Assembly: GCF_009936135.1 (NCBI RefSeq)
Contig: NZ_CP047901.1
Span: 152,984-216,983, forward strand
From: Candidatus Chazhemtobacterium aquaticus
GTDB lineage: Bacteria > Patescibacteriota > Microgenomatia > UBA1400 > Chazhemtobacteraceae
Direction: 5' to 3'
DNA length: 64,000 nucleotides
Below, piece after piece: positions 25,299-43,564 of this stretch. The position numbers were made by a program, and so were the translations under genes. Numbering within the stretch: the first letter of the stretch is position 1; each line of letters begins with the position of its first letter. The notes beneath the pieces are model-generated. The model saw nothing but the letters and a program-made list of their open reading frames with translations, did not search any database and had not been told where the DNA came from.

Positions 25299-25313
25299 CA
25301 TCCATATCCATTA

Positions 25314-25403: not shown

Positions 25404-25419
25404 AATTTCATTCCCTCTA

Positions 25420-25491: not shown

Positions 25492-25570
25492 CTTCACCAC
25501 CAAATCAAACATCACCAGATCTCCCTAAATCTACTACTCAATAAAACAAGTCTTGGCCTTGGTATAATAA

Positions 25571-25656
25571 ACAAACTCCGGAGGAGTCAGATAGCGGTCC
25601 ATTCTGCCTGCTTGGAAAGCAGGTGTGCGCAAGCACACGTGGGTTCGAATCCCACC
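25571..25656 (+). tRNA. tRNA-Ser (anticodon GGA)
   Basis: Acceptor GGAGGAG/CTCCTCC, anticodon stem CCTGC/GCAGG with loop TT-GGA-AA, long variable stem-loop GTGTGC-GCAA-GCACAC, T-arm GTGGG-TTCGAAT-CCCAC. Confidence 0.75.
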
Positions 25657-25678
25657 TCCTCCGCCCCGTATAACCTAT

Positions 25679-26203
25679 CTACTCCAACGGAACTTTCTCA
25701 TTAAACCAACTCACCATCTTGTCTATTCTCGTCACAGTAGGCACCTCCCACTCCAGATACTCACTCAACACTCTCTTAACATCGTTTTCATTTACTCCAC
25801 CGCTCTTAGGTAACACCATTACCAACCTTGTCGGCCACCGTCGATATGTCATCACGTGCAATACCTTTCTACCTTCCTGCTCATCAATCCAATAATTGCC
25901 TAGCTCATCCCAAACATATCTTGCCCCTTCAGTCACAATTCCTTTATTCGTAATCTGATGCATCACTATTCTCGGCTCTGCATTAATCAATGCATACCCT
26001 ACAAATAAAATTGCCGCCACCACCAACACTGGCATAATTCCTTCAATGAAAAACAACACAATACCTACTAAGATCGCCAACACCATCATTGTGCTATAAA
26101 AATCCCTCGACTTCTTTATAGCCAACCTCTCCTCAGCTTCCCATCGCAACAACTCTCTCTCCTGACCATAATCCTGCACCACCTCTCCTTTCTTTTTCTC
26201 CAT
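25679..26203 (-). CDS. hypothetical membrane protein (2 TM)
   Basis: 174-aa ORF. Confidence 0.4.
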   Translation of the reverse strand: MEKKKGEVVQDYGQERELLRWEAEERLAIKKSRDFYSTMMVLAILVGIVLFFIEGIMPVLVVAAILFVGYALINAEPRIVMHQITNKGIVTEGARYVWDELGNYWIDEQEGRKVLHVMTYRRWPTRLVMVLPKSGGVNENDVKRVLSEYLEWEVPTVTRIDKMVSWFNEKVPLE

Positions 26204-26266
26204 ACCTTAATCGTATCATTTTTCCTCTTCTCACCAACCACACTAAAATACTTTAAATAATTACTC

Positions 26267-26351
26267 TGCGGAGACGGTGGGATTCGAACCCACGTGTCCC
26301 GTTAAGGACGCGGGTTAGCAACCCGCTGCCATCGGCCTCTAGGCGACGTCT
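26267..26351 (-). tRNA. tRNA-Ser (anticodon GCT)
   Basis: Minus strand: acceptor GGAGACG/CGTCTCC, anticodon stem GCGGG/CCCGC with loop TT-GCT-AA, long variable arm, T-arm GTGGG-TTCGAAT-CCCAC. Confidence 0.75.
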
Positions 26352-26369
26352 CCATGCTTATACATTCTA

Positions 26370-26996
26370 TCATGCCACCAGCCTCAGAACGCCTGAAGCC
26401 CACCTCGAATAAATCCCCATCAACCTGATATTCATCGAATAATCATAGTATCTCAAGCTACACGTTCCATGATAAACGCTCCTATACTTCCCACCAACCT
26501 TCCTCGTCACTTTAGGTCTGTAGAACCGTGACACAGGGATTGACAAAACGCCTGACCAAAACCCAATAACCTCCGACCTGTCGTGAGACTCATGAATCTG
26601 CAACCATACCCTAAATTTAGTCTCATCAAGAACAAACCCTCTTCTCAACAAACCAATAAAAACTTTTTGCATTTGCTCATCACTACTTGTAAACCCGAGG
26701 TGTGTCGTTGATGGATATTTACTTCCTTCACACCAATACAAAATTGCAGCCAAAACTCGAGCCTCGTCATCCCTCAAACTATCAACACTAACTCTATCCA
26801 TTCTGTAAAATCTCATTCTCTTTAAATGATTTTTCCTAACCAAACCATTTCTTTTCACCACCGACCTACCCAAATCGTTACACCAACAACTCACCATCGA
26901 GGGGTGCACTCCCAATTTTGACGCTATGGCCCTGTAACACCAACCCTCATCCCTAAGTTTCCTTGCTAAAACCACCTTAGACTCTCTCCCAACCAT
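26370..26996 (-). CDS. free-standing HTH plus LAGLIDADG-like homing-endonuclease-family protein
   Basis: N-terminal HTH (VLARKLRDEGWCYRAIASKLGVHPSMVSCW) and a single LAGLIDADG-like motif LAAILYWCEGSK. It sits between tRNA-Ser(GCT) and tRNA-Ser(TGA). Confidence 0.45.
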   Translation of the reverse strand: MVGRESKVVLARKLRDEGWCYRAIASKLGVHPSMVSCWCNDLGRSVVKRNGLVRKNHLKRMRFYRMDRVSVDSLRDDEARVLAAILYWCEGSKYPSTTHLGFTSSDEQMQKVFIGLLRRGFVLDETKFRVWLQIHESHDRSEVIGFWSGVLSIPVSRFYRPKVTRKVGGKYRSVYHGTCSLRYYDYSMNIRLMGIYSRWASGVLRLVA

Positions 26997-27037
26997 ACTA
27001 TTACCCTAACAAAACCCAAACACGCAGTCAACTACCT

Positions 27038-27122
27038 GGCGGTGGGGACAGGACTCGAACCTGCAAGCCCTTGCGGGCGCCAGTTTTCAAGACTGGTTCC
27101 TTACCATTCGGAGCACCCCACC
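27038..27122 (-). tRNA. tRNA-Ser (anticodon TGA)
   Basis: Minus strand: acceptor GGTGGGG/CCCCACC, anticodon stem CCAGT/ACTGG with loop CT-TGA-AA, long variable arm, T-loop TTCGAGT. CCA encoded. Confidence 0.75.
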
Positions 27123-27151
27123 AACACCATAATTTTACCATTTTTCAGCCT

Positions 27152-27805
27152 CTAGCCTGCCAAGGCCCATCCACCCACCCATCTTGCACCTCCCTTCTTA
27201 AGCACCTTAGCTACCTCCTTCATAGTTCCTCCTGTTGTCACTACATCATCTACCACCACCAATCTCTTCCCCTTAATCAACTCCATATTTACCAGCTCAA
27301 ATGCTCCCAAAATCTCCCTTTCCCTCTCATTTTTTCCCATCTCTGCCACAGGCCTGGTCGCTTTTTTTCTTTTAACCACTTCCAACACCTTAACACCCCA
27401 ACTCTCTGCCAAAATCTCAGCCAACATCATTGCTTGATTAAAACCTCTCCAGTTCTCTCTTACTCTATGTAGTGGCACCGGCACCACCCCATCCACTCTC
27501 ATAAAAACCTGTCTCCTTCCATACTCTCCCACGCACTCTCTAAGCAACTGGTGTCTAAACCGGTACTTAACTGCCTTAATTACCCTCTGCATCAATCCTT
27601 CATATCTAAAAACTCTAAAAACCGCATCTAGGCCCAACTCTTTACAACACCTCTTGTGAGTCCGACCACCAATCGAACCTTTTCTACACTCAACACAAAC
27701 CTGCCTCGCCTTAACTAACCTCAATCTACACCCCTCACACAACTCCACCCCCTCCTTACCACAACCAGCGCACTTAACTGGAAACAACCACTCCCATCCT
27801 CTCAC
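27152..27805 (-). CDS. comF: ComF-family phosphoribosyltransferase-domain protein
   Basis: N-terminal Cys4 zinc-finger CAGCGKEGVELCEGCR...CVEC, and a C-terminal PRTase motif RLVVVDDVVTTGGTMKE. Confidence 0.65.
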   Translation of the reverse strand: MRGWEWLFPVKCAGCGKEGVELCEGCRLRLVKARQVCVECRKGSIGGRTHKRCCKELGLDAVFRVFRYEGLMQRVIKAVKYRFRHQLLRECVGEYGRRQVFMRVDGVVPVPLHRVRENWRGFNQAMMLAEILAESWGVKVLEVVKRKKATRPVAEMGKNEREREILGAFELVNMELIKGKRLVVVDDVVTTGGTMKEVAKVLKKGGARWVGGWALAG

Positions 27806-27857
27806 TCTTATATCCTAAACCAAAAAAAAGACGCCCCCTAAAGGCGCCTTTCTTTTC

Positions 27858-28247
27858 TTGGTGGAGACGGTGGGAGTCGAACCCACGTCCGCAAACAATC
27901 TTTAATCAGCTTCTACAAGTTTAGTCTGTCTTTACTACTACCCGACAACAGCCGACAAACAGGTTTCATTATCAGGAGATGATTTTTTACTTAAGAAAGA
28001 CTCAATCACCTTCTTTCCTGCAGCTTGAGTATTTTCCACTCCTAGAGTTGCCCCAAGCATCTCCTCTAAGCGTGTCTTAGGCAGCGTAAGCGAAAGCGAA
28101 CGCAGCTTCAGAAGCGGGCTCACCTAAAGGTGAGTCGCTGGCTGAGATGATTTTATCCTCAGTTGTTTTTTTTAAGCCGTTTTACGAGTTGTGCCTAGCT
28201 CGACTTGCCGCTGTCAAAGTTCATCCACGTCAAAATCCTGACGTCCC
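27858..28247 (-). ncRNA. ssrA: tmRNA (ssrA)
   Basis: The minus strand begins GGGGACGTCAGGATTTTGACGTGG... and ends ...GTGGGTTCGACTCCCACCGTCTCCACCA, a tRNA-Ala-like T-arm and acceptor with a G3:U70 pair. The internal tag frame ...GEPASEAAFAFAYAA ends in TAA. smpB lies about 320 bp away. Confidence 0.8.
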
Positions 28248-28311
28248 CAATAGGAAACATTCTATCATCTTTAGCCTCAAAAATCAACTAAATAGCCCGA
28301 TATACCAACTA

Positions 28312-29084: not shown

Positions 29085-30947
29085 TTATATCCCCACCACC
29101 CACACCTCACCCTCAATTACCACCATCAATCTACCTCTCTCTTCATCAAAATCTACCCCCCCTGCCCTACCAAAACCCTCCCAAACCAATTTCTGTAAGT
29201 AATCTCCACTCTCTCTATCAAACTCAACCACCGCCCCCATCTCTCTATCCCAAACCCACACCCTGCCTCTCTCCTCGCTTACCATTATCTTTTCAGGCTT
29301 CTGCCACTCCTCAACTGGCTTTAATTCATAATCAACTACTAAGCCTTGGTTTAATCTCACCACCTCCCCATTACTCGCCAACAACCACACCTCTCCATCA
29401 ATGGCCATATCCACCACTCCACTCATATCCACCACCACACCAGGCGACAAAAATCGCCTTCTCTTACCATAACCTTCCCCCGTTCCTGGAAACCTAAACA
29501 AGTCATCCCCAGCCACCACATACGCATTAATCCCATATCCCTCCACCAACCTACCTACAACTCCTTCCATATCAAGCCTTGCTGTCTCTTCTCCTTCTTC
29601 GCTCACCACCACCACGTCACTCCCGTTTAGAGCCAAAATCTCTTCATCTGCCCCCGCAATATCCACCACCCCACTTAAGCTCTCACCCCCAGCCACCACC
29701 TCACCACTTTTGTCACTCAAGCTTACTCTCACCACCACTCTCTCATCCTCACCCCACAAATACATCCACTCATCCCGAACATCCACTCCTTCCATCCTTA
29801 GTCCCTCCTTAAACACTCCAGCATCCAACCACATCTGCCCCTCTGTCCTCACCTCACCACTCACCTCCCACCACACCTCATCGACTCTCTTGGCCAACTC
29901 CGCCCACTCTTCACTCAACCTACCTTCTACAAATCTATCTCCCTGACTCACTATCTCTTCTTTTGCCTCTATAACCAAACTCCTCGATCTCACCGCGTTC
30001 ACACTCTTAAGTCTCACCGCTTCCTCCAGCGCATACTCAATCGGTTCGCTCACCCCCTCAAACTCCTCACGTTCCTTCATCACCGATCTTCTTCCAGCTC
30101 CAACCACCACACTTACTAAAAATATCACCAAAAACACACTCCCCAATACCATCGCCCACCGTCTCTTTCCACTCTCTTCACTTCGCAGCGTAATTCCTCT
30201 ACCACCCAATCCCAACTTTCTCTTTAATCTAGCTAAACCTCTCTTCCAACCAGGTTCTTCATTAACTACCATCACCTGTGCTTTTGATGGCTCTATCCCA
30301 CTTATCTCAGGCTCAACCAACTCAATAATGCCCTCTTGCTCATTATCAACAACCTCCTCAACTAACTTAATTCTTTTTACCTTTACCACCAACCCTGCCA
30401 CCTTAGCTCCATCCTCCATCTCTCCCATCTTAGCCACCATCTCAACCTCACTCGCCCCCTCACTCCAAATACCATTCACAAATTCCTCACTCCCTATCAC
30501 CACTTCATCCTCTTCCAACAACCAGCCAGACACCGCTTCTCCACCTCCCCAAACCTCCACTCTCTCCCCTCCTCTCACTAACACCACCTTCATACCTCCC
30601 CAACCTCCTATATACACTCCTCGCTTCCCCTCATCATCAACCAATACCTGACCCACCACTACGCTTCCAATATCTCCTATCTCACTTCTTAACCTGTCCA
30701 CTTGTTCAACCACCCACTCCCATCCTTCTTTTTCACCCAACACAAAACTCTCCACCACCTCCTCCATCAATCCTCTCCCCTTCTCTTTTACTCCCCCCTC
30801 GCCACTCATCACCTCCTCCAAACTCATTACCACCAACATCGCCCGACCCTTCTCACCACCACTCTCCCAACGCACCTGAGACCAAACCTCATCACTAGCA
30901 CCACCCACCACCTGCTTCCACTCAATTCCCAGTCTCTTATCTCTCAT
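29085..30947 (-). CDS. hypothetical Gly/Val/Glu-rich membrane-anchored protein
   Basis: 620-aa ORF with one central TM (AMVLGSVFLVIFLVSVVVGAG). Its composition is driven by the G/T-rich coding strand. It is far longer than any antisense ORF. Confidence 0.4.
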   Translation of the reverse strand: MRDKRLGIEWKQVVGGASDEVWSQVRWESGGEKGRAMLVVMSLEEVMSGEGGVKEKGRGLMEEVVESFVLGEKEGWEWVVEQVDRLRSEIGDIGSVVVGQVLVDDEGKRGVYIGGWGGMKVVLVRGGERVEVWGGGEAVSGWLLEEDEVVIGSEEFVNGIWSEGASEVEMVAKMGEMEDGAKVAGLVVKVKRIKLVEEVVDNEQEGIIELVEPEISGIEPSKAQVMVVNEEPGWKRGLARLKRKLGLGGRGITLRSEESGKRRWAMVLGSVFLVIFLVSVVVGAGRRSVMKEREEFEGVSEPIEYALEEAVRLKSVNAVRSRSLVIEAKEEIVSQGDRFVEGRLSEEWAELAKRVDEVWWEVSGEVRTEGQMWLDAGVFKEGLRMEGVDVRDEWMYLWGEDERVVVRVSLSDKSGEVVAGGESLSGVVDIAGADEEILALNGSDVVVVSEEGEETARLDMEGVVGRLVEGYGINAYVVAGDDLFRFPGTGEGYGKRRRFLSPGVVVDMSGVVDMAIDGEVWLLASNGEVVRLNQGLVVDYELKPVEEWQKPEKIMVSEERGRVWVWDREMGAVVEFDRESGDYLQKLVWEGFGRAGGVDFDEERGRLMVVIEGEVWVVGI

Positions 30948-31940: not shown

Positions 31941-33695
31941 TCACTTACTCTCAATATTAAACAAACCGCTCTTCACCGCTACCCTACCCGGCGCCCTCAA
32001 GTTAAACGCCTTGTAAAACTCCTCTCCCTTAATTGATATCGATCCCTTATCCGTCTGAAAATTAACCGAGTCAGTCACCCCATCATCTCGGTAAGTCACA
32101 CTCACCCCAGTCACTCTTCCATACCCACCCTTACTCTTAAGCTCAGATATTGAATACGGATTACCTCCCCAACAAGATCCAATTGGAGTCACCCGGTCAT
32201 CACTTTCACCTCTCTGATAAACCACTACCCAAGCATTAATAATGTCAGCCATCTCCTCTCCCGACAGCCATGGATTATCTCTTCCGCACATATCACCACT
32301 TCTACTCTTGTACCAAGCCTTGTAAAACCACGGACTGCCCGCCCTACTCTCCCATGCATTTGACGTCCAACCACTCCTTCCTCCCTCAGCATCCCAAAAC
32401 CCCGGCGTTGTGTGACCCAATGTCTGATAAGACTCCTGATATCCTCCTGACGTGCTGGCATACCATGCACTAATAATCTCCCCCGTATTGTTACTCACCA
32501 AAATCTTGCCCTTAGTATTATTCACTGCCTCCCCCCACTTAGCGTCCCCCACCTTGCTTGATCGATAGACCTGACAACTCTCTGTTGTACAAATCGAACC
32601 AGACGCTGATCTGTTTCCCATCCGCCACCCCACATATGACAACGCATAGCTTCTTGCCGCAATCGCCTGTGCCTCTAACGCCGCCATCCCTCCTTTATCC
32701 GCCCAAGAAGAGGGCATCTCTGAAATTCCTCTCATATAATTATCCTCAAAAGGCAAGCTCCCAACCGAGGTATTGATCGAAAAACTTGTATCAACCGTCT
32801 CAATCCTTACATTCCCGTAATAAGCCTTTAAAATCTCTTCCGCTGATTGTCCAGCCTTAGCCCTCCCATAGGCTCCATACTGACTCATTCCCTTAAAATG
32901 GGGCGCTCCAAAAGAAAATACTGCAAAACTTCCTCCAGGAGCTGAATTCCGAAAACCCTCTATTGAAGCGTTGTAATCATCCGCCAACGGCACATCACCT
33001 ACGGTCGTACTAAACGTCTCTGCCTTTGCTGACAAAACCGATTGTTGTAAAGCTGACAAACTCGCAATCTTACCCTCCAAACTCTTCTGATACTCCTTCG
33101 CCCCCGCAATCTCTTTCTTAAAGAAATCCGCCTCCTTATCCAAACTCGCTTGCAACCCCGACAACCTCGTTTTACTTGCCTCCAAATCAGCCCTATCAGA
33201 CTCGAGCCCTGCAATCTCCTCCGCTAATGATGCAATCATCACCCTGTCCTGATTCACTGCCACCTCCCGATAACCCAACTCTTGCTGCAACTCACCACTC
33301 CCCACCGCCAACAACCACTCTACTGCTCCTGAAGAAGTCCTCATCCTCTTGTAATATCCTTTTGTTTTCTCAGCCAACAGCAGGTACTGAACCGCCAAAT
33401 CTTTCTCCCTATCCTCTATCTCATCCGCTAAATCATCCAGCCTATCTTCCGCAGCTCCAATCTGCCTCTGAATTGAAGCAATCTCTCTCTCCAACCTATT
33501 TACTTCAGACTCTAGTGGTGCCGTCGCTGCCTTGCTATCTGCCAAGGCTTTAGACAAGTCGGTAATCTGCCTGCCTAAACATTCATACAGCGGCTCACCT
33601 CCCAAACCCTCACAATTTGTTTCTGCCACCACCGGCTTCGTCAACCAACCCAGCAAACCCACCAATAGCAACACTAGTATTACTCTCCATCTCAT
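31941..33695 (-). CDS. SpoIID/LytB-domain peptidoglycan-modifying protein with N-terminal signal peptide and coiled coil
   Basis: Signal peptide MRWRVILVLLLVGLLGWLTKPVVA. Long coiled-coil region. SpoIID-like core ...AALEAQAIAARSYALSY...AWYASTSGGYQESY. Confidence 0.6.
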   Translation of the reverse strand: MRWRVILVLLLVGLLGWLTKPVVAETNCEGLGGEPLYECLGRQITDLSKALADSKAATAPLESEVNRLEREIASIQRQIGAAEDRLDDLADEIEDREKDLAVQYLLLAEKTKGYYKRMRTSSGAVEWLLAVGSGELQQELGYREVAVNQDRVMIASLAEEIAGLESDRADLEASKTRLSGLQASLDKEADFFKKEIAGAKEYQKSLEGKIASLSALQQSVLSAKAETFSTTVGDVPLADDYNASIEGFRNSAPGGSFAVFSFGAPHFKGMSQYGAYGRAKAGQSAEEILKAYYGNVRIETVDTSFSINTSVGSLPFEDNYMRGISEMPSSWADKGGMAALEAQAIAARSYALSYVGWRMGNRSASGSICTTESCQVYRSSKVGDAKWGEAVNNTKGKILVSNNTGEIISAWYASTSGGYQESYQTLGHTTPGFWDAEGGRSGWTSNAWESRAGSPWFYKAWYKSRSGDMCGRDNPWLSGEEMADIINAWVVVYQRGESDDRVTPIGSCWGGNPYSISELKSKGGYGRVTGVSVTYRDDGVTDSVNFQTDKGSISIKGEEFYKAFNLRAPGRVAVKSGLFNIESK

Positions 33696-34154: not shown

Positions 34155-34158
34155 TAAA

Positions 34159-35310
34159 ATGCGTACAACAATCTTCCTTTTCATCTTCCTCACAAACCTC
34201 TTTCTTTTCTCCGCTTCCCCCGCTCAAGCCGAATGTTGCGCCGCCAGCAGTTCTACATGCACCGGACCCTTCACCTGCGAAGGAGGCGAACTTATCTGTA
34301 CCACCTCTGCCGAATGCCCTCGCGATCCTTCCTGTTTTGACAGTGGCCAACCTTGCAACTCACTAAAGCCCTGCTGCGAAGAGGGTTTTGCCTGTTCTCC
34401 AACTACTTCAACCTGTCTGTCAACCGCTGCCCCCACCCCAGGCCCAGAACCAAGACCTATTGAGTGTGCACTCGCCCACATCGGCGCCGGCAGGGGAGGC
34501 CAAAACTGGGACGTCACTTACTGTGTCGCCGCCGACACTATTGAGGACCTCCATCGCGTCGCCCAAATCACCGGCATCTGCCGCCGCGGCGCCACCAGCA
34601 TTCTCGGCCAGTATGTCAACAACTGCTCTTGTCATGACGACGATTGGTACGACAACCCGCTCACTGCCGTGGGGGCTCGAGCGGTCTGCTGTGTCGCCGG
34701 ACTAGGTCGCTGCCCGTCAGCTGTTCGCACTACCCAAAGTGTCTCCGGCCAATTCCCCACTCTTTTTGACCCAAACACCAACCGCTACTACACCTGTTTC
34801 ACTCTCCAAGGCATTGATCGAAACGTTGGTATCATGGAAGTTCAGATCAAAGACGCCGATGGGCAACAAGTCTGTAGTGTTCCTCGCGTCACCGTCGCTC
34901 CGGGCAACTACAGCTGGTGGGAATACTTTGACAACACCCTTGAAACCCGCTTCGACACCTCTCTGCCTTTCTACGAAGACCCCACCGAACAAGATCGCTA
35001 CGATCTCACCTGTAGTACTGTCACTGGCAAGCGCGGCATCAACACCGCCATTGGCTGCATTGCCGTCAAACCAGTCGAATTTACTCAAGATTTCCTCACT
35101 GTCAGTATAGGCATTGGTGGTGGTATAGCTCTTTTACTGCTTCTCTATGCCACTGCTCTTATTACCCTTTCTCAAGGCAATCCTCAAAAAATCCAGTCGG
35201 GACAACAAATCATCGCCGCCGTCATCCAAGGCCTCATCCTCATTACCCTCTCAGTAGTTATGCTTAACTTCCTTGGTATTAACATTCTCAACCTCCCTGG
35301 TTTACAATAA
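34159..35310 (+). CDS. pilin-fusion P2: signal peptide, ~290-aa cysteine-rich extracellular domain, C-terminal VirB2-like pilin module
   Basis: The true start is the ATG at 34159 (MRTTIFLFIFLTNLFLFSASPAQA|ECC...). The ORF-track start at 33952 overlaps P1 in another frame. The mature N-domain has ~30 Cys (ECCAASSSTCTGPFTCEGGELICTTSAECPRDPSCF...). The C-terminal ~90 aa (GINTAIGCIAVKPVEF...SIGIGGGIALLLLLYATALITL...GINILNLPGLQ) is near-identical in pattern to P1. Confidence 0.55.
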   Translation: MRTTIFLFIFLTNLFLFSASPAQAECCAASSSTCTGPFTCEGGELICTTSAECPRDPSCFDSGQPCNSLKPCCEEGFACSPTTSTCLSTAAPTPGPEPRPIECALAHIGAGRGGQNWDVTYCVAADTIEDLHRVAQITGICRRGATSILGQYVNNCSCHDDDWYDNPLTAVGARAVCCVAGLGRCPSAVRTTQSVSGQFPTLFDPNTNRYYTCFTLQGIDRNVGIMEVQIKDADGQQVCSVPRVTVAPGNYSWWEYFDNTLETRFDTSLPFYEDPTEQDRYDLTCSTVTGKRGINTAIGCIAVKPVEFTQDFLTVSIGIGGGIALLLLLYATALITLSQGNPQKIQSGQQIIAAVIQGLILITLSVVMLNFLGINILNLPGLQ

Positions 35311-35314
35311 AGCC

Positions 35315-35653
35315 ATGCTACTTGCTCAAGCTGACATTACCAATGTCCCTAACCCTGCCACCAACTTTACCGACCCCGCCACCTGGAATATTGCTGGCCT
35401 TCTTACTGGGGGTACTGGAAGTTTTAATCTTGTCAACCTAGCCTTCTTCCTCGTCGGCTTCGTCTTCTTCTCAAACCTAGTCATCGCCGCCGTCACCTAT
35501 ATTATGTCCGAAGGTTCTCCCGATAACGTCTCCAAAGCCAACTCGCGCTTCACCACTGGATTAATTGGCCTCATCGTTGTCTTTGCCAGCTTTGTTATAG
35601 TCCGTTTAGTTGCTGCTCTTTTCAGTCTTGATGCTAGCGTTCCAATAAACTAG
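35315..35653 (+). CDS. VirB2/TrbC-like pilin paralogue P3
   Basis: Two-helix hairpin ...LVNLAFFLVGFVFFSNLVIAAVTYIMSEGSPDNVSKANSRFTTGLIGLIVVFASFVIVRLVAALF. The start is uncertain, either 35273 or 35315. Confidence 0.45.
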   Translation: MLLAQADITNVPNPATNFTDPATWNIAGLLTGGTGSFNLVNLAFFLVGFVFFSNLVIAAVTYIMSEGSPDNVSKANSRFTTGLIGLIVVFASFVIVRLVAALFSLDASVPIN

Positions 35654-35662
35654 AAACAAAAC

Positions 35663-36061
35663 ATGAAAACAAAAAAACTTCTCATTCTTCCACTAACCAC
35701 TCTCTTCTTTATCTCAAATCCCCATCTTGCCCACGCTCAACTCAATCCCTTTCAAACCAACCTTAAAGACATGTTTCCTGCTGCCCAAAACCTTCCCAAT
35801 CCAGGCAGTGGTGGCGTTCTCTCTACTTTCCTCAACCCAATCGTTAGTTTCGTTCCCATCGTCACTGGCATTCTCTCCTTCATTATTATCATCATTGCCG
35901 GCATCAAATATATAAGTCACGCAGGCAATGCCCAAGAAACCAAAAAAGTCAACGATATGATAACATACGCCTTAGTAGGACTGGCCTTGTCAGCCATCGC
36001 TTTCTGGATCACCCGCCTTCTCTTTATGGTCGGCGCTGGTGACTCTCAAAACTTATTCTAA
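35663..36061 (+). CDS. VirB2/TrbC-like pilin paralogue P4
   Basis: Signal peptide ...NPHLAHA|QLN, followed by two hydrophobic helices separated by the loop HAGNAQETKKVNDM. Confidence 0.5.
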   Translation: MKTKKLLILPLTTLFFISNPHLAHAQLNPFQTNLKDMFPAAQNLPNPGSGGVLSTFLNPIVSFVPIVTGILSFIIIIIAGIKYISHAGNAQETKKVNDMITYALVGLALSAIAFWITRLLFMVGAGDSQNLF

Positions 36062-36063
36062 CC

Positions 36064-36435
36064 ATGAACCTAATCAAACTCCTTATACCCGTCGTTTACG
36101 CTCAAACCGATCCTATTGGCACCATTCAAGCTCCCGCCTCTATTGTTACTGGACCCAGCGATATCTACAAAATATTTAACTCAGTCGTTAATCTCTTAGT
36201 TGTCGTTGCTGGTATCTGGTTTCTTGTCCAAATCATTCTAGCCGGTTTCAACTACATCACCGGTGCTGGTGATAGCAATAAAACTGGCGAAGCCATGAAA
36301 AAAATCACCGACTCTGTCATTGGTCTTGTGGTTGTCGCCGCCGCCTTTATCATCACCTACATTGCTGGTGCTCTCTTTTTTGGCACAGGCTTTAACATCC
36401 TACAACCAACCATAAAAACCATTACTGATTTCTAA
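36064..36435 (+). CDS. VirB2/TrbC-like pilin paralogue P5
   Basis: Short leader MNLIKLLIPVVYA|QTD. Helix 1, then loop GAGDSNKTGEAMKKITDS, then helix 2. Confidence 0.55.
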   Translation: MNLIKLLIPVVYAQTDPIGTIQAPASIVTGPSDIYKIFNSVVNLLVVVAGIWFLVQIILAGFNYITGAGDSNKTGEAMKKITDSVIGLVVVAAAFIITYIAGALFFGTGFNILQPTIKTITDF

Positions 36436-36440
36436 TAATC

Positions 36441-36812
36441 ATGAATCTAGTCAAACTTTTCATCCCCCAAGCTCACGCTGCATTCACCCAAGGAGGTGAT
36501 ATTGTCGGCCCGGGATCTCATCAAAACATCAGCTCCGCTACTGCTGGCACCTCACTTGAAACCCTCATTAGCACTCTTCTTGGTGCACTCACTGCCATCG
36601 CTGGTTTAGGTTTCCTCATCTACTTCGTCATTGGCGGCATCAACTGGATCACCGCTGGTGGTGACCAACAAAAACATCAAAAGGCCACCAAACAGCTTAC
36701 CGACGCCGCCATAGGCCTTATCGTCGTCGTCGTCGCCTACGCTATCGCCGGTATTGTTGGCACAGTCCTTGAAGTTGATATATTAAATCCAGCCAGCCTA
36801 CTCGGCTTATAA
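36441..36812 (+). CDS. VirB2/TrbC-like pilin paralogue P6
   Basis: Leader MNLVKLFIPQAHA|AFT. Conserved core GGINWITAGGDQQKHQKATKQLTDAAIGLIVVVVAYAIAG. Confidence 0.55.
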   Translation: MNLVKLFIPQAHAAFTQGGDIVGPGSHQNISSATAGTSLETLISTLLGALTAIAGLGFLIYFVIGGINWITAGGDQQKHQKATKQLTDAAIGLIVVVVAYAIAGIVGTVLEVDILNPASLLGL

Positions 36813-36819
36813 CCACAAT

Positions 36820-37158
36820 ATGTTTATCAAATCCGCCTACGCTGCCATCTCCAACCCTGCCCTCCAAAATTTTGGTACCGACACTACTGGTGGAGCCGGT
36901 TTAGCTTTCTATGTTTCTCAGCTCTGGAAAACCCTCGTCGTCGTTGGCGGCCTCGCCTTCCTCCTTTACACCATTATTGGCGGAATCAACTGGGTCATTG
37001 CCGGAGGCGACAAAACCAAAGTCGAATCCGCTCAAAAACACCTCACCAACGGACTCACCGGCCTTATCGTTCTTGCCGCTTCTTACGCCATCATGGCCGT
37101 GGTCAGTGATGTTGTTGGTATCAATATTCTTAATATTGATTGGACCTTTGGCAACTAA
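36820..37158 (+). CDS. VirB2/TrbC-like pilin paralogue P7
   Basis: Leader MFIKSAYA|AIS. Core GGINWVIAGGDKTKVESAQKHLTNGLTGLIVLAASYAIMA. Confidence 0.55.
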   Translation: MFIKSAYAAISNPALQNFGTDTTGGAGLAFYVSQLWKTLVVVGGLAFLLYTIIGGINWVIAGGDKTKVESAQKHLTNGLTGLIVLAASYAIMAVVSDVVGINILNIDWTFGN

Positions 37159-37162
37159 AACC

Positions 37163-37477
37163 ATGAATATTATCAAACCCGTCTACGCTCAAACATCAGA
37201 TATTGATAGCCAAGTCACCGGCTTCTTTGCTTATAGCAACGTTGGTGATCTTGTCAGCACCCTCGTCACCACTGCCATTGTCGTTGGTGCCCTTGCCACC
37301 CTTATCTATCTCATCATAGGTGGTATCAACTGGATCACCTCAGCCGGAGATACCCAAAAAGTCGAATCCGCTCAAAAACACCTCACCAACGCCCTTATTG
37401 GCCTAGTAATTCTCGTCGCTGCCTATGCCATTTTCACTGTCGTTAAAGCTTTTCTTGGTATCGGTGATGAAATCTGA
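37163..37477 (+). CDS. VirB2/TrbC-like pilin paralogue P8
   Basis: The true start is the ATG at 37163 (MNIIKPVYA|QTSD). The ORF-track start at 36911 overlaps P7 in another frame. Core GGINWITSAGDTQKVESAQKHLTNALIGLVILVAAYAIF shares an identical ~34-nt stretch with P7. Confidence 0.55.
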   Translation: MNIIKPVYAQTSDIDSQVTGFFAYSNVGDLVSTLVTTAIVVGALATLIYLIIGGINWITSAGDTQKVESAQKHLTNALIGLVILVAAYAIFTVVKAFLGIGDEI

Positions 37478-37543
37478 CCCATTTGACAGGGTCAAACCCA
37501 TCTGAATATAATCAGCTTAACCATTAATTATCTTATCCAAAGC

Positions 37544-37888
37544 ATGAAACTACTTGAATCGCTTATCAAACCAGTACAAGCCCAGTCCGATCTTGGTGTT
37601 CCCGAACCAGATTACGCTGTTAGTAGCATTGGCAACCTTCTCTCTGGTCTAGTTAACGCCGCTATCGTTATCGGCGCTCTCGCCGCCTTCCTCTATCTCA
37701 TCCTTGGTGGCCTTCAATGGATCACCGCCGGTGGAGATAAAACCAAAACCGAAGAAGCTCAGAAAAAAATCACTAATGCCATTATCGGCTTAGTCATTAT
37801 TGCTGCTGCCTATGCCATCATCACCGTCGTTGTCCAATTCCTTGGAATCGGTGAAATCAGCAGTCTTTCTCTTCCTGCCATCGAATAA
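37544..37888 (+). CDS. VirB2/TrbC-like pilin paralogue P9
   Basis: Leader MKLLESLIKPVQA|QSD. Core GGLQWITAGGDKTKTEEAQKKITNAIIGLVIIAAAYAIIT. Confidence 0.55.
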   Translation: MKLLESLIKPVQAQSDLGVPEPDYAVSSIGNLLSGLVNAAIVIGALAAFLYLILGGLQWITAGGDKTKTEEAQKKITNAIIGLVIIAAAYAIITVVVQFLGIGEISSLSLPAIE

Positions 37889-37916
37889 CTTTATTTTCAA
37901 CAAAGTTAATCAAAAG

Positions 37917-37941
37917 AACCTTCCACCAGGAAGGTTTTTTT
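37917..37941 (+). terminator. Rho-independent terminator between pilin genes P9 and P10
   Basis: AACCTTCC-ACCA-GGAAGGTT forms a perfect 8-bp stem with a 4-nt loop, immediately followed by a T7 run, in the 80-bp gap after P9. Confidence 0.65.
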
Positions 37942-37968
37942 GTTATCCCGCCATGCTACAATCTGCTC

Positions 37969-38322
37969 ATGAAGCTAAACTTCACCGCTCATGCCCAAGA
38001 CTGGGCTAGTATTGACCCAAACTGCGTTGCTGGACCCAACAACGATGTTGCCACCATCCAGGGCTTCAAATGTATCATCACTAATCTACTAGCTATCATC
38101 GCCCCCATCATCACCCTCGTCGCCATTGGCATGATCATCTTAGGCGGCGCCAAAATGATAGCAGGCGCAGATAACCCCAAAGCCGTTGACGAAGCCAAAA
38201 AAATCATCACCTTCGCCATCATTGGTGTCATTGGTATTGCTGCTGCCTGGATCATCCTCGTCCTCATTCAAGAATTTACCGGCGCTCCCGTCACCCAGTT
38301 CCAAATCATCACCAATCCTTAG
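37969..38322 (+). CDS. VirB2/TrbC-like pilin paralogue P10 (divergent, Cys-containing)
   Basis: Leader MKLNFTAHA|QDW. Two helices with the loop GGAKMIAGADNPKAVDEAKKII. Two Cys in the mature N-region. Confidence 0.5.
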   Translation: MKLNFTAHAQDWASIDPNCVAGPNNDVATIQGFKCIITNLLAIIAPIITLVAIGMIILGGAKMIAGADNPKAVDEAKKIITFAIIGVIGIAAAWIILVLIQEFTGAPVTQFQIITNP

Positions 38323-38386: not shown

Positions 38387-41300
38387 ATGCGTTATCTACT
38401 CGCCACCCTCTCCACCCTACTAATCACATCTCTACTCACCAACACAGTTTTTGCCCAAGCTAACCCTGCGGGAACCGTTGGACCTGAAATAGCTGTTCCT
38501 AATGCGGGCACCACTGTCATAGCTGCCCAAAGTTACACTGGTGTTGTCTCTGTGATCAACTACATCGATATTGATGGTCCAGTCGCCTTTAACTCAGTGC
38601 CCATCAAAAATCTTAATGTTCCCACCATTTTAAGAGTCGACATTTCCGCTAACACCTCCAATGAAGACATTGTTGCCTACGCCAACAGTCTTAACAGCGT
38701 TGTCGACACTGAGTTTCCTAATGGTCTGAAAGTTGTTGTCCTAAGCGTCGAAACTAACAATCTCGACTGGTGGTACGGCAGCCCTGGCCAGTCCAATGAT
38801 GAAGCCTCCATCCGCCAAGGCGCGCGAGAATATGCCGAAAAATTCATCCTCTTTGCCCAAACTATTCGGCAAGACCTTCCCCTAGCCCCAGCTCCACCAG
38901 ATCTTTTCAATGGCGTCTTTAACGCCGATCCCTGGATGGACGAATTTACTCGTTCAGGCACATGTCCTTATGTGGATTACAATGTCTCCGATATTTTTGA
39001 GCTAACTCCCACTGTTGGTGGCGGAGCCTATGCTTGGAACACTGTCCACCTCTATCAACAAGAAAAAATGTGTGGCAAGGATGTCATCCATTTTGAAGGC
39101 TGGGGTATTAATCCCAACAACCCTCCGCCAACCGTTAAACAACAAGTTGATTGGTTTCAAAACACTCCTCTCCCTCCTGGCATTGAAACCGCCACCACTC
39201 TCATTCTTCCTCACTGTCCTCCAGAATATGACGCTAGTCTTGACCAAACCGTCAACGGCTTCATAGATTGGTGGTACTACATCAACGGCCGGGTCTTTAC
39301 CTCCGATGGACTTGAAATTGATCCCGAAAGCTGTACCGAAAGAGAAAAACCTGATTGTTACTACGACGGCAATCTCACCCGACCTGGTGGTACCTGCAAA
39401 TCCAGAGTTCCCTACGTCCATAGTGCTCTTGAACAATACGCACCTCAATGTACTCTCACGCCTCAAGGATCACTCTCCCGAACTTCTTGTGGCATTCCAC
39501 CCACCATCACCAATTTGCCCAATGACCCCCAGGAGTACATGGATGTACGACTCCTTGTTAACTACTCACAACTCCAACTTGGTGGTTTAGGACCAGACCA
39601 CACCGCCTGGCGATCTATACCTATCGACAACCTAGCTCGCGGCTACCCTTACAACGCCCTTGCCGATAAACCACTTTCTGTTACAGAAGATACTCCCAAA
39701 GAAGCCTTTCGTACCTGGTGGCGCCTATTAAGCCTCCGTCAACAAATTGAGGCCAAAGCTGAATTCTTCCAACGCTTCCGTATTCAAGACCCTCCCATTT
39801 TTGACTCCGAGTTTGCCTATTCTCAAGGTGGCAGCACTCAGACCTACACCATCAGTGAACTAGAGAACATTCTTCCCGACTGTCTTCGCCTTTTTCCAGT
39901 TCCCAATCGCTGTGGCATAACCGCTGATTCTCTTACCCCTGAACAAACCTACTACAGGCTCCCTGAAACTACTCGTGCCATGTACGACGCCTTTCTCCCT
40001 TTCGACTTCGACAACGTGCGCGGATATCTTGCTCTTCAATACAAAGACCCTACCGATTTCCTATCAGGAGAAAACCGCAATCGAGCCGGGGTCATCGCCG
40101 ACAATCTCCCATATATTCAAGCCCTAGTCGATATCTTAAGCAATAAAGTTAGTGGCATCTTAACCGCCCTAAGCCCTCAATGGCTAAACACCCTAAGAAC
40201 CGACACTCTACCTACCTCAAAAGATTACACCATCGAATACGAAGAAAGTGGCGAAATCAACCTCACCCCCGAATCCCAACAATCCTTCACTCACATGGCA
40301 GCCGCTGCTCGCACTAACTCAGAATATGGAGCAGACTGGGCTTCAGATCTAGCTACCACCTGTTACAATCCCGAAAATCAAGACCCAACTCTTTCTTCAC
40401 CCCTCACCTACCCTCAAAAGCTTGAGGCGCAAGACCCATATCTTCCTCTTCCTGGATCAGAATATACCGACGTTCTTGATCAATCAGTTCTTATCCCCAC
40501 CGAGACTTCAATTTACTATGGCACTCCCACCACCTCTGGATCAGATATCACTTGTACCTACGAAACTGGCAATACTTGCTCTTACGACATCAACACCGGC
40601 TCTTGTCCTCCTCTTTACATCACCAATACCACAGGTGGCATTCCTGGACAAAGAGACCCGGACCTTCCGGTTCGTTCTCAAGTCGGTCGTTCCATCATCA
40701 CCTTTGCCAACCCCCTTATGACAGACATTAGTCGCCTCATCTCCGAACCGTATCTTGGTATGCCTGACACCAGTGGTACATACAACTGGGCCTCCCATAT
40801 GAACCTCTCTCTCTACCATCAAATGCTCACTCGCGACTTTACCCCCCAACCCCAACCTTTTACCGAAATGTTTTCCGAATACACAGAAGATCCCATGTAT
40901 GCCAAACAAGCTCAGTATCAAGCTAGTAAAGACAATGACTCAGCTGTCACCCTCTCTGCCCAAGCCGGTGGAACTGGTGACCAAACAGGACTAGTCGCAC
41001 GCAAAGGTGGCCAACTTGAAATTGATCTCTGCAAACTTCGAAACTTCTGGCTCCGTCCCGATTCTCTCCAAATTGGTGACCCTGAAGATTGCCAACAACT
41101 TGATCAATACATCTCCACACCAAACCAACCCTATGAACTCACCACTCCTGGATCAACCGACTCAGCCTGTCAGGTCAAACAATATCTTTTCGAAAACATC
41201 TGTCCTGGCGGATCATGCTCTTCATACGTCGTCGACACAGCCCTCTCCACCTCTTGTTCTGGTAAAGTTATAAATCCTTACTTCGCCATCACTGTTGCTC

Positions 41301-41737
41301 TCAACGAAAACGGAGGGCTAACCAGCATTCACAGCGACGGCACCAATGTTAAACACTTCGGATGTGCTCCTTTTGATATCGGTGCCACAATGTACGGACA
41401 TGACATTCCCTCCAAAACTTCCTGTTTTACTGACACCATATCCAACGACTGTCGAGACAATAAAACTGACCTAGAAACCCTTCAAGAATATGGTTACTCC
41501 GCCTCCTATCTTCGCACCTTAAACAACATCCTGAGAGTCTTAGGTGCATGCTCCGCAGACCAAGTCAATCAACAACAGCTTTGCGTTCCCATCTGGGTTA
41601 GTCCTTCCCAGGCCCAATCCATCTCCAACAGTCTTCTACCCATTCTCACCTCTCAACGTAGTCTCTGGTTCCGCTACTACCAGGGGTATCTTGAAGCCAT
41701 GGCCACCGACAATCAGTGTTCACTCTACCAACCATAG
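38387..41737 (+). CDS. large (1116 aa) secreted protein of unknown function, candidate pilus- or T4SS-associated surface/adhesin component
   Basis: Sec signal peptide MRYLLATLSTLLITSLLTNTVFA|QA. No TM or sorting motif after it. Many Cys, Trp and Tyr. Co-oriented and tightly spaced with P10 upstream and the VirB6-like gene downstream. Confidence 0.5.
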   Translation: MRYLLATLSTLLITSLLTNTVFAQANPAGTVGPEIAVPNAGTTVIAAQSYTGVVSVINYIDIDGPVAFNSVPIKNLNVPTILRVDISANTSNEDIVAYANSLNSVVDTEFPNGLKVVVLSVETNNLDWWYGSPGQSNDEASIRQGAREYAEKFILFAQTIRQDLPLAPAPPDLFNGVFNADPWMDEFTRSGTCPYVDYNVSDIFELTPTVGGGAYAWNTVHLYQQEKMCGKDVIHFEGWGINPNNPPPTVKQQVDWFQNTPLPPGIETATTLILPHCPPEYDASLDQTVNGFIDWWYYINGRVFTSDGLEIDPESCTEREKPDCYYDGNLTRPGGTCKSRVPYVHSALEQYAPQCTLTPQGSLSRTSCGIPPTITNLPNDPQEYMDVRLLVNYSQLQLGGLGPDHTAWRSIPIDNLARGYPYNALADKPLSVTEDTPKEAFRTWWRLLSLRQQIEAKAEFFQRFRIQDPPIFDSEFAYSQGGSTQTYTISELENILPDCLRLFPVPNRCGITADSLTPEQTYYRLPETTRAMYDAFLPFDFDNVRGYLALQYKDPTDFLSGENRNRAGVIADNLPYIQALVDILSNKVSGILTALSPQWLNTLRTDTLPTSKDYTIEYEESGEINLTPESQQSFTHMAAAARTNSEYGADWASDLATTCYNPENQDPTLSSPLTYPQKLEAQDPYLPLPGSEYTDVLDQSVLIPTETSIYYGTPTTSGSDITCTYETGNTCSYDINTGSCPPLYITNTTGGIPGQRDPDLPVRSQVGRSIITFANPLMTDISRLISEPYLGMPDTSGTYNWASHMNLSLYHQMLTRDFTPQPQPFTEMFSEYTEDPMYAKQAQYQASKDNDSAVTLSAQAGGTGDQTGLVARKGGQLEIDLCKLRNFWLRPDSLQIGDPEDCQQLDQYISTPNQPYELTTPGSTDSACQVKQYLFENICPGGSCSSYVVDTALSTSCSGKVINPYFAITVALNENGGLTSIHSDGTNVKHFGCAPFDIGATMYGHDIPSKTSCFTDTISNDCRDNKTDLETLQEYGYSASYLRTLNNILRVLGACSADQVNQQQLCVPIWVSPSQAQSISNSLLPILTSQRSLWFRYYQGYLEAMATDNQCSLYQP

Positions 41738-41773: not shown

Positions 41774-43564
41774 ATGCTCAAGAAAATCCTTCTCACTTTC
41801 ACCACTCTCTGCCTGTTTTTTACCTTATCCATTCCCGCTCATGCTCAAACAGACACTAAAGACATCTTAAGAGATTTCTGCGACAGTCGCCAAGGCAATG
41901 TTATCAATCTAGAAACCTGGTATGCCGGCAGATGCGATCCTGAGAGTGAAACATCAACTTTCATGGGTCAAAACCGCGGCTTTGGAGATATTGTCATCCT
42001 CCATCTCTATGAACTGATAAATGGCGAGCAAAACAAGGCAGATGAGGATATGATCAAAGACTTCTTCGAGTCCCTTGTTGACACCATTTCTCAAAACAAC
42101 GGCTTTAATTATCTCACCTACATTCAAGAAAATAATGCCACATTCAAAAACACATCATCGAACTCAGGTATGATATCCCAAATTAGTGGTGGCATTTCCT
42201 ACTTAATCTCAACCCCTCCGGCGAGTACCCAACAATATATCGCCTACATCAATAACAACCTCCAAAGACATAGCCTAACCCAACCAGCATACGCTCAAAA
42301 CGCCACTGGAGAAGGTGGTGGATATGGCTTTGCCCGTCTTGAAGGTTTTCTACCTCTCTGGAAAGCTTTCCGCAACATAGCCTACTTCTTCTTCATTCTC
42401 GCATTCGTCATCTACGGCTTCATGATCATGTTCCGTGTCAAAATTAACCCTCAAACAGCTGCCAATATTCAACTAGCTCTTCCTAAACTAATAGTCACCC
42501 TCATCCTCATCACCTTTTCCTATGCCATAGTCGGTCTACTTATCGACTTTATGTGGGTTGGTTACTATCTTATACTCAACACCTTAGACAGCTTTGGAGT
42601 CTTTGGAGAATCCAAAGGAGTACTTGGGTTCGTCAATGATATATTCCGCGGCCTCGCCTCAGGAGGAGGCGGACTAATCCTCACCTCAATTTTCCAAACA
42701 ATTTTAGCTGTTTACGCCGGCGTGCCTGGAACCTTAGGAGCCCTCACCGGAATATCTGGAAACATATTTACCATTATTATGGCACTCACTACTTTTACCG
42801 GCATAGGGCTAATTCTCATCCTTATCATACTCATTGCCGTCATTATCGCCCTCATTAAGCTATTTGTTAAACTTGTCACTGCTTACGTCACCATCTTTAT
42901 CAACCTAGTTCTTTCTCCCCTCATACTTCTTAGCGGTATTTTTCCCGGCAAGAATGACGTTTTTAGTACTTGGATTACCAACCTTGTTGCTAACATTATT
43001 GTCTTCCCTGTCGCCTCCATCCTTCTTCTTTTCTCCGGATATTTTATGACCCAACCAGTCGCCTCCTTAATCCAGGATACATTAAATGGTTTAGCAAACA
43101 TAATCCCCGGAATAGACGGGAATGTCTCACTGTCCCTAATAGAAAACACCCAAAGAATTCCTAACGTCCCCCTCCTATCACCTCAAACTGAGTGGCTTAG
43201 TAATTTTCCTATAATAGGAAGCGCGGTTGCCGCTGGAGCGTCCGAGTGGTATGCCCTGATAGGCCTCGCTCTTCTCCTCATGTCACCTAAGTTCGTAGAT
43301 ATGGTCATGGATGCCTTCAAAGTCAAACCATTCCCCTACGGTTCTGCTGCCATAGAATCTTTAACCGCAGGCTACAAAGCTGAGGCGGGCTTAATTGGTA
43401 AAGCTACTGAAGAAGGAGGGGTGTTAGCGAGAAGATTGCCTAGGTTTAGCAGTAAACTTAGAGGTAGGCAGGAGCAAATCGACACAAGCGTCAACATCCT
43501 CTCAGGAGGAAAAGTCAAACCAGCCGGCACTGAAGGAGATCAAACTCCAGTTAGTAGGTCATAA
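41774..43564 (+). CDS. VirB6/TrbL-like polytopic inner-membrane T4SS component with N-terminal signal peptide and ~190-aa extracytoplasmic domain
   Basis: Signal peptide MLKKILLTFTTLCLFFTLSIPAHA|QTD, followed by at least 6-7 hydrophobic helices (e.g. IAYFFFILAFVIYGFMIMF, LIVTLILITFSYAIVGLLIDFMWVGYYLIL, GIGLILILIILIAVIIALIKLFV...). Confidence 0.5.
   Translation: MLKKILLTFTTLCLFFTLSIPAHAQTDTKDILRDFCDSRQGNVINLETWYAGRCDPESETSTFMGQNRGFGDIVILHLYELINGEQNKADEDMIKDFFESLVDTISQNNGFNYLTYIQENNATFKNTSSNSGMISQISGGISYLISTPPASTQQYIAYINNNLQRHSLTQPAYAQNATGEGGGYGFARLEGFLPLWKAFRNIAYFFFILAFVIYGFMIMFRVKINPQTAANIQLALPKLIVTLILITFSYAIVGLLIDFMWVGYYLILNTLDSFGVFGESKGVLGFVNDIFRGLASGGGGLILTSIFQTILAVYAGVPGTLGALTGISGNIFTIIMALTTFTGIGLILILIILIAVIIALIKLFVKLVTAYVTIFINLVLSPLILLSGIFPGKNDVFSTWITNLVANIIVFPVASILLLFSGYFMTQPVASLIQDTLNGLANIIPGIDGNVSLSLIENTQRIPNVPLLSPQTEWLSNFPIIGSAVAAGASEWYALIGLALLLMSPKFVDMVMDAFKVKPFPYGSAAIESLTAGYKAEAGLIGKATEEGGVLARRLPRFSSKLRGRQEQIDTSVNILSGGKVKPAGTEGDQTPVSRS

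Follow-up and report, generated by a model that had tools for sequence, protein, structure and literature searches.

A strain-variable, cysteine-rich head on one pilin of a type IV secretion array in Candidatus Chazhemtobacterium aquaticus

Introduction

Why does one gene in an array of short pilin genes encode a large cysteine-rich head, and where does that head come from? The question is raised by a locus of the ultrasmall Microgenomates bacterium Candidatus Chazhemtobacterium aquaticus (assembly GCF_009936135.1, contig NZ_CP047901.1), analysed here in a 64 kb stretch of DNA (positions 152,984-216,983 of the forward strand), referred to as the window, in whose numbering all coordinates are given. 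The gene under study is named P2 and its left neighbour P1. P2 stands second among the ten genes of a pilin array and is the only one of them that bears a head. The locus was compared with related contigs labelled L001 (GCA_048500475.1, 850 kb), L002, L005-L010 and L085-L090. An earlier description made from the DNA letters, called here the sequence-only reading, saw in P2 one open reading frame (ORF) joining a Sec signal and a disulfide-rich ectodomain to a pilin module that is a paralogue of P1, and suggested that the ectodomain had been acquired from a foreign source. The first of these claims is borne out by the ORF and by the alignment with P1, and the second is not supported by the data below. 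It is nearly certain that P2 is a real head-bearing pilin-family protein, and equally so that its head is a recombining hypervariable cassette. Taken as a whole, P2 is probably a selectively maintained, head-bearing VirB2-like pilin whose exchanged head serves surface recognition on or beside the pilus.

The locus is a Patescibacteria (Microgenomates) type IV secretion system (T4SS) cluster of a published layout (PMC12102498), as the pilin array, PrgI and VirB4 occur in one cluster near dnaA and dnaN. The latter two genes lie 4-5 kb past the last gene of the T4SS cluster and about 20 kb from P2. VirB2-like arrays of Patescibacteria comprise 2-11 genes, especially in Microgenomatia, and are often found near the replication origin; they have been proposed to help the cells adapt to host strains (Quinonero-Coronel et al., 2025; PMC12102498). 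Southlakia epibionticum, the only Patescibacterium amenable to genetics, cannot grow as an epibiont without its pilin array (Wang et al., 2023; PMC10633639; PMC12857230). Matches to the Pfam family PF18895 (T4SS_pilin) are found in P1, P2 and the short downstream ORFs, and the PrgI and VirB4-like genes that accompany the array provide the T4SS-cluster context expected for members of this family. Six of the nine genes scanned reach the gathering score and three, P2 included, fall just under it. The gene at 37163..37477 was outside the nine; its counterparts in L002 and L085-L088 contain PF18895.

Architecture of P2

P2 is a single ATG-to-stop ORF of 383 codons (exactly 34159..35310, + strand), separated from the adjacent genes by spacers of 4 nt and 1 nt. 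As the sequence-only reading had it, the protein appears to begin with a Sec signal peptide: judged by inspection, the N-terminus MRTTIFLFIFLTNLFLFSASPAQA, followed by ECC, has an n-h-c layout and an AxA site. The cysteines are fewer and the ectodomain is shorter than that reading estimated, 24 instead of about 30 and approximately 260 amino acids (aa; residues 25-284) instead of about 290. Twenty-two of the 24 cysteines lie within residues 25-284, where cysteine makes up 8.5% of residues vs 0.79% in the other genes of the window. The remaining two, C285 and C300, are invariant in 28/28 aligned sequences and make a Cys loop that is also found in P1 (C32...C45). The pilin module had been called nearly identical in pattern to P1. 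Homology and shared motifs stand, as both proteins contain GIGGGIALLLLLY and GINILNLPGL, but near-identity does not: residues 256-382 of P2 align with P1 at 49% identity over 127 aa (E=1e-23).

Within the head, the N-terminal "CC" module is common to the family members P0001, P0003, P0004, P0005, P0007 and P0008 and is missing in P0002, P0006 and P0009 (alignment A1). It is followed by a knottin-like insert that occurs in the window and its allele relatives only, by a linker rich in Pro, Thr and Ala (LSTAAPTPGPEPRP), and by a conserved core (Table 1). C122, C141 and C213 of the core are invariant, and C158 and C239 are present in at least 90% of sequences. Between strands of the sandwich predicted below, a Cys-containing insert at about residues 145-189 shows the greatest variation in length among alleles of any part of the core.

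Two models were used to describe the fold. The full-length AlphaFold2 model, built with 11 sequences, is poor overall (predicted local distance difference test score, pLDDT, 59.6; predicted template modelling score, pTM, 0.35) and was used for the helical hairpin alone, where pLDDT is 70-87 and two helices (305-336 and 342-375) are predicted on either side of the loop SQGNPQK. The model of the core and Cys loop, built with an alignment of 28 sequences, reaches pLDDT 85.1 and pTM 0.77. In it the core is predicted to form a seven- to eight-stranded beta-sandwich that can be superposed on fibronectin type III (FN3) domains, so that it is best described as an immunoglobulin (Ig)/FN3-like sandwich according to the model; the Cys loop is predicted to form strands E188-190, E196-200 and E203-206 (model numbering). 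Residues 97-284 have no match to Pfam fn3 (PF00041) even at E<=10, nor any other meaningful Pfam match. Set beside the six-Cys spacing of knottins and granulins (C-x3-7-C-x3-6-CC-x-C-x4-13-C), residues 59-86 read C-x6-C-x5-CC-x5-C-x6-C. Subthreshold matches for these residues, a part modelled with low confidence, include Granulin (19.4 bits; gathering score 20.9), Toxin_12 (E=0.03) and the theraphotoxin structure 6av8 in the PDB (E=0.07). With regard to VirB5/TraC-like homology, the Pfam scan of P2 gave PF18895 alone. Membership of P2 in PF18895 can be argued by transitive homology through P1 (49% identity, 32.1 bits) and through the members of the P2 family, of which 22/27 match PF18895 at E<1e-3 (best 3e-9).

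A database search returned ten full-length homologues of P2 with 39-92% identity; a cluster mate of the closest complete one is annotated as from "Microgenomates group bacterium ADurb.Bin238". The search also returned many proteins of 226-590 aa in which a PF18895 module at the C-terminus is preceded by unrelated sequence, in one case with a Pfam fn3 domain. An ectodomain-only profile searched against 1.84 billion cluster representatives found 20 proteins, and since all 20 end in the same pilin module, every known instance of the ectodomain is fused in this way and belongs to a relative of this organism. A second search, by word index and with the aligned ectodomains, yielded no further proteins, and a scan of genome contigs found two loci only. 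The sequence-only reading had suggested looking for an unfused pilin at the orthologous position. None occurs in L001, L002, L005-L010 or L085-L090, where the second slot always holds a long head-bearing pilin, and the fusion of head and pilin is ancestral in this clade. Within one allele the ectodomain is strongly constrained, with a ratio of nonsynonymous to synonymous divergence (dN/dS) of 0.041 against L002 (synonymous divergence, dS, 1.05) and 0.028 against L006, which equals the constraint on neighbouring pilins. Two distant family members, P0053 and P0054, carry an extra N-terminal segment of about 140 aa before the conserved head; accretion of N-terminal modules onto this pilin thus seems recurrent.

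A hypervariable cassette exchanged between strains

Comparison with L001 shows how sharply the head is set off from its surroundings. In a profile of 100-bp steps, DNA identity between the two strains is 100% over 32400-33700 and 36800-37900 and drops to about 50% over 34200-34900. Between the two strains, dS is 0 for P7 and P8, 0.28 for P1 (99% aa identity) and about 1.0 for the pilin module of P2, and the signal peptide and head are 24% identical in aa, with a proportion of synonymous differences (pS) of 0.80. The last approximately 60 aa of P2 are identical across alleles whose ectodomains are 24-32% identical in local alignments, despite the dS of about 1.0. The left boundary of the cassette recurs in L010. 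The DNA of the cassette has no match in L001, L009, L010, L088 or L089, and a short one in L085-L087 (8% of the segment, 76% identity), whereas P1 is 91-94% identical to the window in the contigs that hold it in full.

At least four deeply diverged classes of head occupy this one slot among contigs with P1 DNA 91-95% identical to that of the window, in genomes with flanks of 91-100% identity: class A (383 aa; window, L002, L005, L006), class B (350 aa; L001, L009), class C (351 aa; L010, L088, L089) and class D (334 aa; L085-L087). A fifth, possible class E (355 aa; L090), is found in a more distant background. Each allele class is under strong purifying selection. The exchange of heads is most simply explained by homologous recombination anchored in P1 on the left and in the conserved pilin module on the right. 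Searches of the 64-kb window with tblastn and blastn for silent copies of the ectodomain matched only P2 itself, so that, as far as the 64 kb shows, the variation is between strains and does not arise by intragenomic switching. A diversity-generating retroelement was considered and rejected, as the alleles differ over their full length, with indels and down to 24% identity, and not at adenine-templated positions of a short region. No reverse transcriptase was present among the window proteins scanned, a scan that covered part of the ORFs.

Divergence from L001 continues beyond P2 into P3, P5/P6 and the N-terminal ends of P4 and P9, which are predicted to be exposed parts of the pilins. In P3, P4 and P9 it is strong in the N-terminal parts (35312..36100 and 37969..38100), and their hydrophobic helices are conserved. 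A Cys loop of the kind seen in P1 and P2 is present in P9 too. In L088, a Logan contig, four pilin genes (the P7-P9 block) are found inverted upstream of the SpoIID gene (1958..5849 and 5925..8721 of that contig), which is either a real inversion of the array or an assembly artefact.

Proposed function and its alternatives

Module order, restricted distribution, purifying selection within alleles, divergence and mosaicism between them and the modelled Ig-like fold are the starting points for a mechanism, whose steps we infer. P2 would be exported by the Sec route and its signal peptide cleaved, after which the hairpin would sit in the cytoplasmic membrane like that of other pilins. The hairpin might then enter or cap the T4SS filament as a minor or terminal subunit of low stoichiometry. 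In pilins of the VirB2/TraA type the N-terminus faces the exterior of the filament, and the disulfide-stabilised head would for this reason be displayed outward, where it could bind a surface structure of a partner (host) cell. Replacement of the head from strain to strain would retune or diversify recognition, or evade something that recognises the head. That the head is a recognition module displayed on the pilus itself has roughly even odds. A more specific version is tentative and falls short of that: T4SS filaments would carry a dedicated recognition subunit, in which a swappable, Ig-like, disulfide-stapled head sets which host cells can be docked, the pilin modules act as recombination anchors and the knottin-like mini-domain extends the binding surface.

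Several points weigh against P2 as a recognition pilin with an exchanged head. P2 itself matches PF18895 at 19.7 bits (E=8.8e-4, residues 307-372), under the gathering score of 26.6. For the core, Foldseek found no significant match in PDB or BFVD; the Ig/FN3-like sandwich is in any case a generic fold that points to no ligand, and both N-terminal Cys modules were modelled without confidence. Filament formation has no experimental demonstration for any VirB2-like pilin of Patescibacteria (PMC12857230), and a 28-kDa N-terminal head may not be compatible with filament packing. The case for recombination rests on the mosaic identity of metagenome-assembled contigs, in which chimerism of a single contig is conceivable; the boundary nonetheless recurs in independent assemblies. 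Finally, this reading does not account for the enrichment of C at fourfold-degenerate sites in this copy (0.55 vs 0.46), described in the next section.

Some of these points lend weight to a reading in which P2 is no filament subunit. Its hairpin would instead be a membrane anchor, or the base or initiator of the T4SS, and its head a fixed adhesin, a receptor, or an adaptor for assembly or for spanning the peptidoglycan. From the known structures of F- and T-pili it can be inferred that a VirB2-type filament would have difficulty accommodating some 260 extra residues on each subunit; P2 scores below the PF18895 threshold, and one of the ten array genes alone has a head. The pilin module is, on the other hand, conserved above all its surroundings, and some 60 residues have stayed identical at a dS of about 1, which points to specific contacts with partners that are themselves conserved, be they other pilins or the machine. 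P2 also keeps the Cys loop and the helices of P1. Neither point separates a tip or minor subunit from an anchor, and we regard the anchor as unlikely, though still to be taken seriously.

A further alternative places the cause of hypervariability in evasion, with the head as a phage receptor or a target of host defence and its alleles kept by negative frequency-dependent selection. Deeply diverged alleles do occur in nearly identical backgrounds, and it is the exposed N-terminal parts of P2, P3, P4 and P9 that hold most of the divergence. By analogy, such a pattern is typical of phage receptors and surface antigens. The data contain no pointer to a phage, and a pure decoy or target would be more easily lost than exchanged, whereas a long head-bearing gene under purifying selection is retained at all syntenic loci. 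Evasion is compatible with recognition by the head; as an explanation in place of recognition it is rather improbable.

Base composition and the origin of the head

The sequence-only reading noticed that the insert was GC-rich, which the windowed profile confirms. The guanine-plus-cytosine (GC) content is 57.1% in the ectodomain and 62.3% in residues 101-200, against 44.3% for the window mean and 46.4% in the immediate flanks, and the head is the top-GC stretch of the 64 kb at scales of 300, 500 and 800 bp (z = 3.2-3.9). From its amino acids and the codon usage of the + strand genes of the window, the ectodomain is expected to have 52.0% GC, and neighbouring pilin genes have 43-50%. About half of the excess is amino-acid composition, rich in Cys, Gly, Ala, Pro, Arg and Thr, and the rest is a modest extra preference for synonymous C within the strand bias of the genome itself. 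At fourfold sites, genes on the + strand have G 0.04 and C 0.41, and genes on the - strand are the mirror image; the corresponding values are C 0.55 and G 0.07 in the P2 head and C 0.46 and G 0.05 in the downstream pilin genes.

Had the ectodomain come from a foreign, higher-GC organism and been fused to a resident pilin, the high GC would be a relic of the donor. Such an origin is suggested by the GC maximum of the window, by a GC content at third codon positions (GC3) of 0.59 in the head where 0.41-0.45 is expected (0.69 in residues 101-200), and by the near-identical strain L001, whose allele B shows no GC excursion. The other evidence argues against it. All known members of the domain family are fused to this pilin module and come from Patescibacteria relatives, and the same allele has a GC3 of 0.48 in L002, which is the background level, and 0.55 in L005/L006 at a dS of about 1. 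The fourfold sites of the head avoid G as the host does. The rve integrase gene at 46224..47282 served as an internal control for foreign DNA: it shows the reversal of strand bias expected of a recent arrival (skew +0.12 vs about -0.4 locally; fourfold C 0.32 and G 0.10 on the coding strand), which suggests a recently inserted or inverted insertion sequence element. With the fused-only distribution, the fourfold signature, the GC3 in L002 and the compositional share of the excess, foreign acquisition is unsupported and very unlikely. For the extra synonymous C, one possibility is a recombination-associated bias, namely GC-biased gene conversion at a hotspot.

The remaining alternative, that a frameshift or assembly error joined an unrelated ORF to a pilin gene, can practically be dismissed, given that the architecture recurs in four further assemblies with this allele and in syntenic full-length homologues (383 aa in L002, L005 and L006; 283-356 aa in more than ten other assemblies) and that dN/dS stays at 0.03-0.04 within the allele and across the junctions, which excludes a stop or frameshift between the Cys-rich region and the pilin module; no point in its support was found.

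Strand bias is a general property of this region. GC skew is negative in every 1-kb bin of the window, between -0.14 and -0.79 in all but three and about -0.36 on average, regardless of gene orientation, and no change of sign occurs at dnaA/dnaN (55161..58010) inside the window. The related loci are all biased in the same direction (-0.17 to -0.40). Three genes (5707..6993, 8710..9456 and 15976..17118) have a weaker bias than their surroundings, with skews of -0.07 to -0.11, and may be recently acquired or inverted segments. A 620-aa ORF at 29085..30947 (- strand), kept in L001 and without a Pfam match, has 824 G vs 103 C on its coding strand and is dominated by Val, Glu and Gly; judging from this ORF, the strand bias appears to reach into amino-acid usage.

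Comparison with known systems

P2 is closest to the VirB2-like arrays described in Patescibacteria (PMC12102498; PMC10633639). It shares with them a tandem array, here of ten genes, that adjoins PrgI/VirB3 and VirB4 at about 20 kb from dnaA, a two-helix module at the C-terminus, the Microgenomatia lineage and strongly diverged paralogues within the array. Described members have been treated as small pilins, whereas P2 has a disulfide-rich head of 260 aa between signal peptide and pilin module, and variation at P2 also occurs between strains at one slot, beyond the divergence of paralogues. A literature search on Patescibacteria pilin arrays found no description of long head-bearing members, of a Cys-rich Ig-like head family or of cassette exchange between strains. 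The array and the pilin family are already known; the head-bearing member, the head family and the allelic cassettes appear to be new.

Other systems offer functional analogies only, and P2 is a member of none of the TrwL/TrwJ, minor or tip pilin and pilE/pilS families. The amplified trwL (VirB2) and trwJ (VirB5) genes of the Bartonella Trw T4SS and the VirB2 paralogues of Anaplasma provide variant pilus-surface subunits that are thought to broaden or vary host-cell binding, and have been cited as an analogy for the Patescibacteria arrays (PMC12102498). These diderm, host-cell-targeting systems vary by paralogue number in small pilins and by a separate VirB5 adhesin; unlike P2, they have no head fused to VirB2 and no exchange of allelic cassettes. 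Minor pilins of the TcpB/CofB type (type IVb) and VirB5 at the tip of the T-pilus resemble P2 in joining a pilin-type assembly module to a binding domain in a single gene among plain pilins. Their pilin folds and machines are unrelated, however, and their extra domain is C-terminal to the pilin helix. P2 shows neither sequence nor fold homology to VirB5 (no Pfam match), and TcpB appeared in the Foldseek search as an insignificant match (rank 23, E=0.05). Like P2, pilE/pilS of Neisseria combines a conserved assembly part with a hypervariable exposed part altered by recombination. P2 differs in that the 64-kb window holds no silent copies, that its variation is between strains, at the population level, and that its alleles are far more diverged (24-32% aa identity). 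Compared with fibronectin type III and Ig-like adhesin domains, the core lacks an fn3 sequence match and has five conserved Cys, a variable insert of about 45 residues and two non-canonical helices.

Features of the locus

The coordinates of P2, its parts and the surrounding genes are summarized in Table 1. A protein with a SpoIID domain and an N-terminal coiled coil (31941..33695, - strand) is encoded divergently from the pilin array with conserved synteny. By analogy, it may be a cell-wall remodelling partner of the T4SS with a VirB1-like role. Directly after the array, the secreted 1116-aa protein encoded at 38387..41737 (+) has 26 Cys. Its synteny is kept in L001 and L002, it is mosaic between near-identical strains (73-100% identity per 100 bp), and it may be a further exposed component associated with the T4SS. 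The T4SS region is preceded by tRNA genes clustered at 25225..28248 together with a transfer-messenger RNA gene (27859..28248, -).

Table 1. Features of P2 and of the T4SS locus in window coordinates.
Feature	Position	Strand	Basis or remark
P1, short Cys-loop T4SS pilin, 127 aa	33771..34154	+	PF18895, 32.1 bits vs gathering score 26.6; conserved left flank of the cassette
P2 whole gene, 383 aa, head-bearing VirB2-like pilin	34159..35310	+	ORF; ten full-length homologues
Hypervariable cassette (signal peptide and ectodomain)	34155..35033	.	blastn break exactly at 34154/35034 vs L001
Putative signal peptide, residues 1-24, AQA/E cleavage motif	34159..34230	+	Inspection; all homologues have hydrophobic N-termini ending small-x-A
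N-terminal "CC" cysteine module, residues 25-59, CCx6Cx5Cx6Cx5Cx5C	34231..34335	+	In several allele classes
Knottin-like allele-specific insert, residues 59-86, C-x6-C-x5-CC-x5-C-x6-C	34333..34416	+	Window and allele-A relatives only
Pro/Thr/Ala-rich linker, residues 87-100	34417..34458	+	Sequence; pLDDT <50 in full-length model
Conserved ectodomain core, residues 101-284, predicted Ig/FN3-like beta-sandwich and two helices	34459..35010	+	Model, alignment
Cys-loop hairpin, residues 285-304 (C285...GINTAIGC300), common to P1	35011..35070	+	Alignment, model
Pilin hairpin, residues 305-383, two hydrophobic helices and SQGNPQK loop	35071..35307	+	PF18895, model
GC maximum of the window	34201..35000		800-bp window 57.0%, 300-bp window 62.3%; highest of all windows
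Other eight short pilin genes of the array, P3-P9 plus 37163..37477	35312..38322	+	PF18895 matches
Large protein after the array, no Pfam match	38387..41737	+	Pfam scan
Second large protein, no Pfam match	41774..43564		Pfam scan
842-aa gene, no Pfam match	43619..46147	-	Pfam scan
rve integrase	46224..47282	-	Pfam family rve
PrgI/VirB3-like	47364..48353	+	PF12666, E=1.6e-8
Gene between the PrgI/VirB3-like and VirB4-like genes	48355..49476	+	
VirB4-like ATPase	49539..51437	+	PF19044, E=2.5e-30; PF03135
M23 peptidase protein	Downstream of VirB4-like gene		
dnaN, dnaA	55161..58010		

Scans for repeats, promoters and terminators around P1-P3 found no terminator between the genes, and the sole similarity was the expected match between the 3' ends of P1 and P2 (26 nt, 81%).

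Implications

The extreme strand-specific base bias of this lineage can be used as an internal test for foreign DNA, and this test classes the GC-rich head as native. Few gene sets have been shown to be indispensable to a cultivated Patescibacterium living as an epibiont, and the T4SS pilin array is one of them (PMC10633639). A folded, strain-variable head on one member of the array is an obvious candidate for the specificity determinant of this essential and functionally opaque machine. If exchangeable heads do set which host cells can be docked, they would represent a pilus-borne counterpart of the exchange of receptor-binding proteins in phages.

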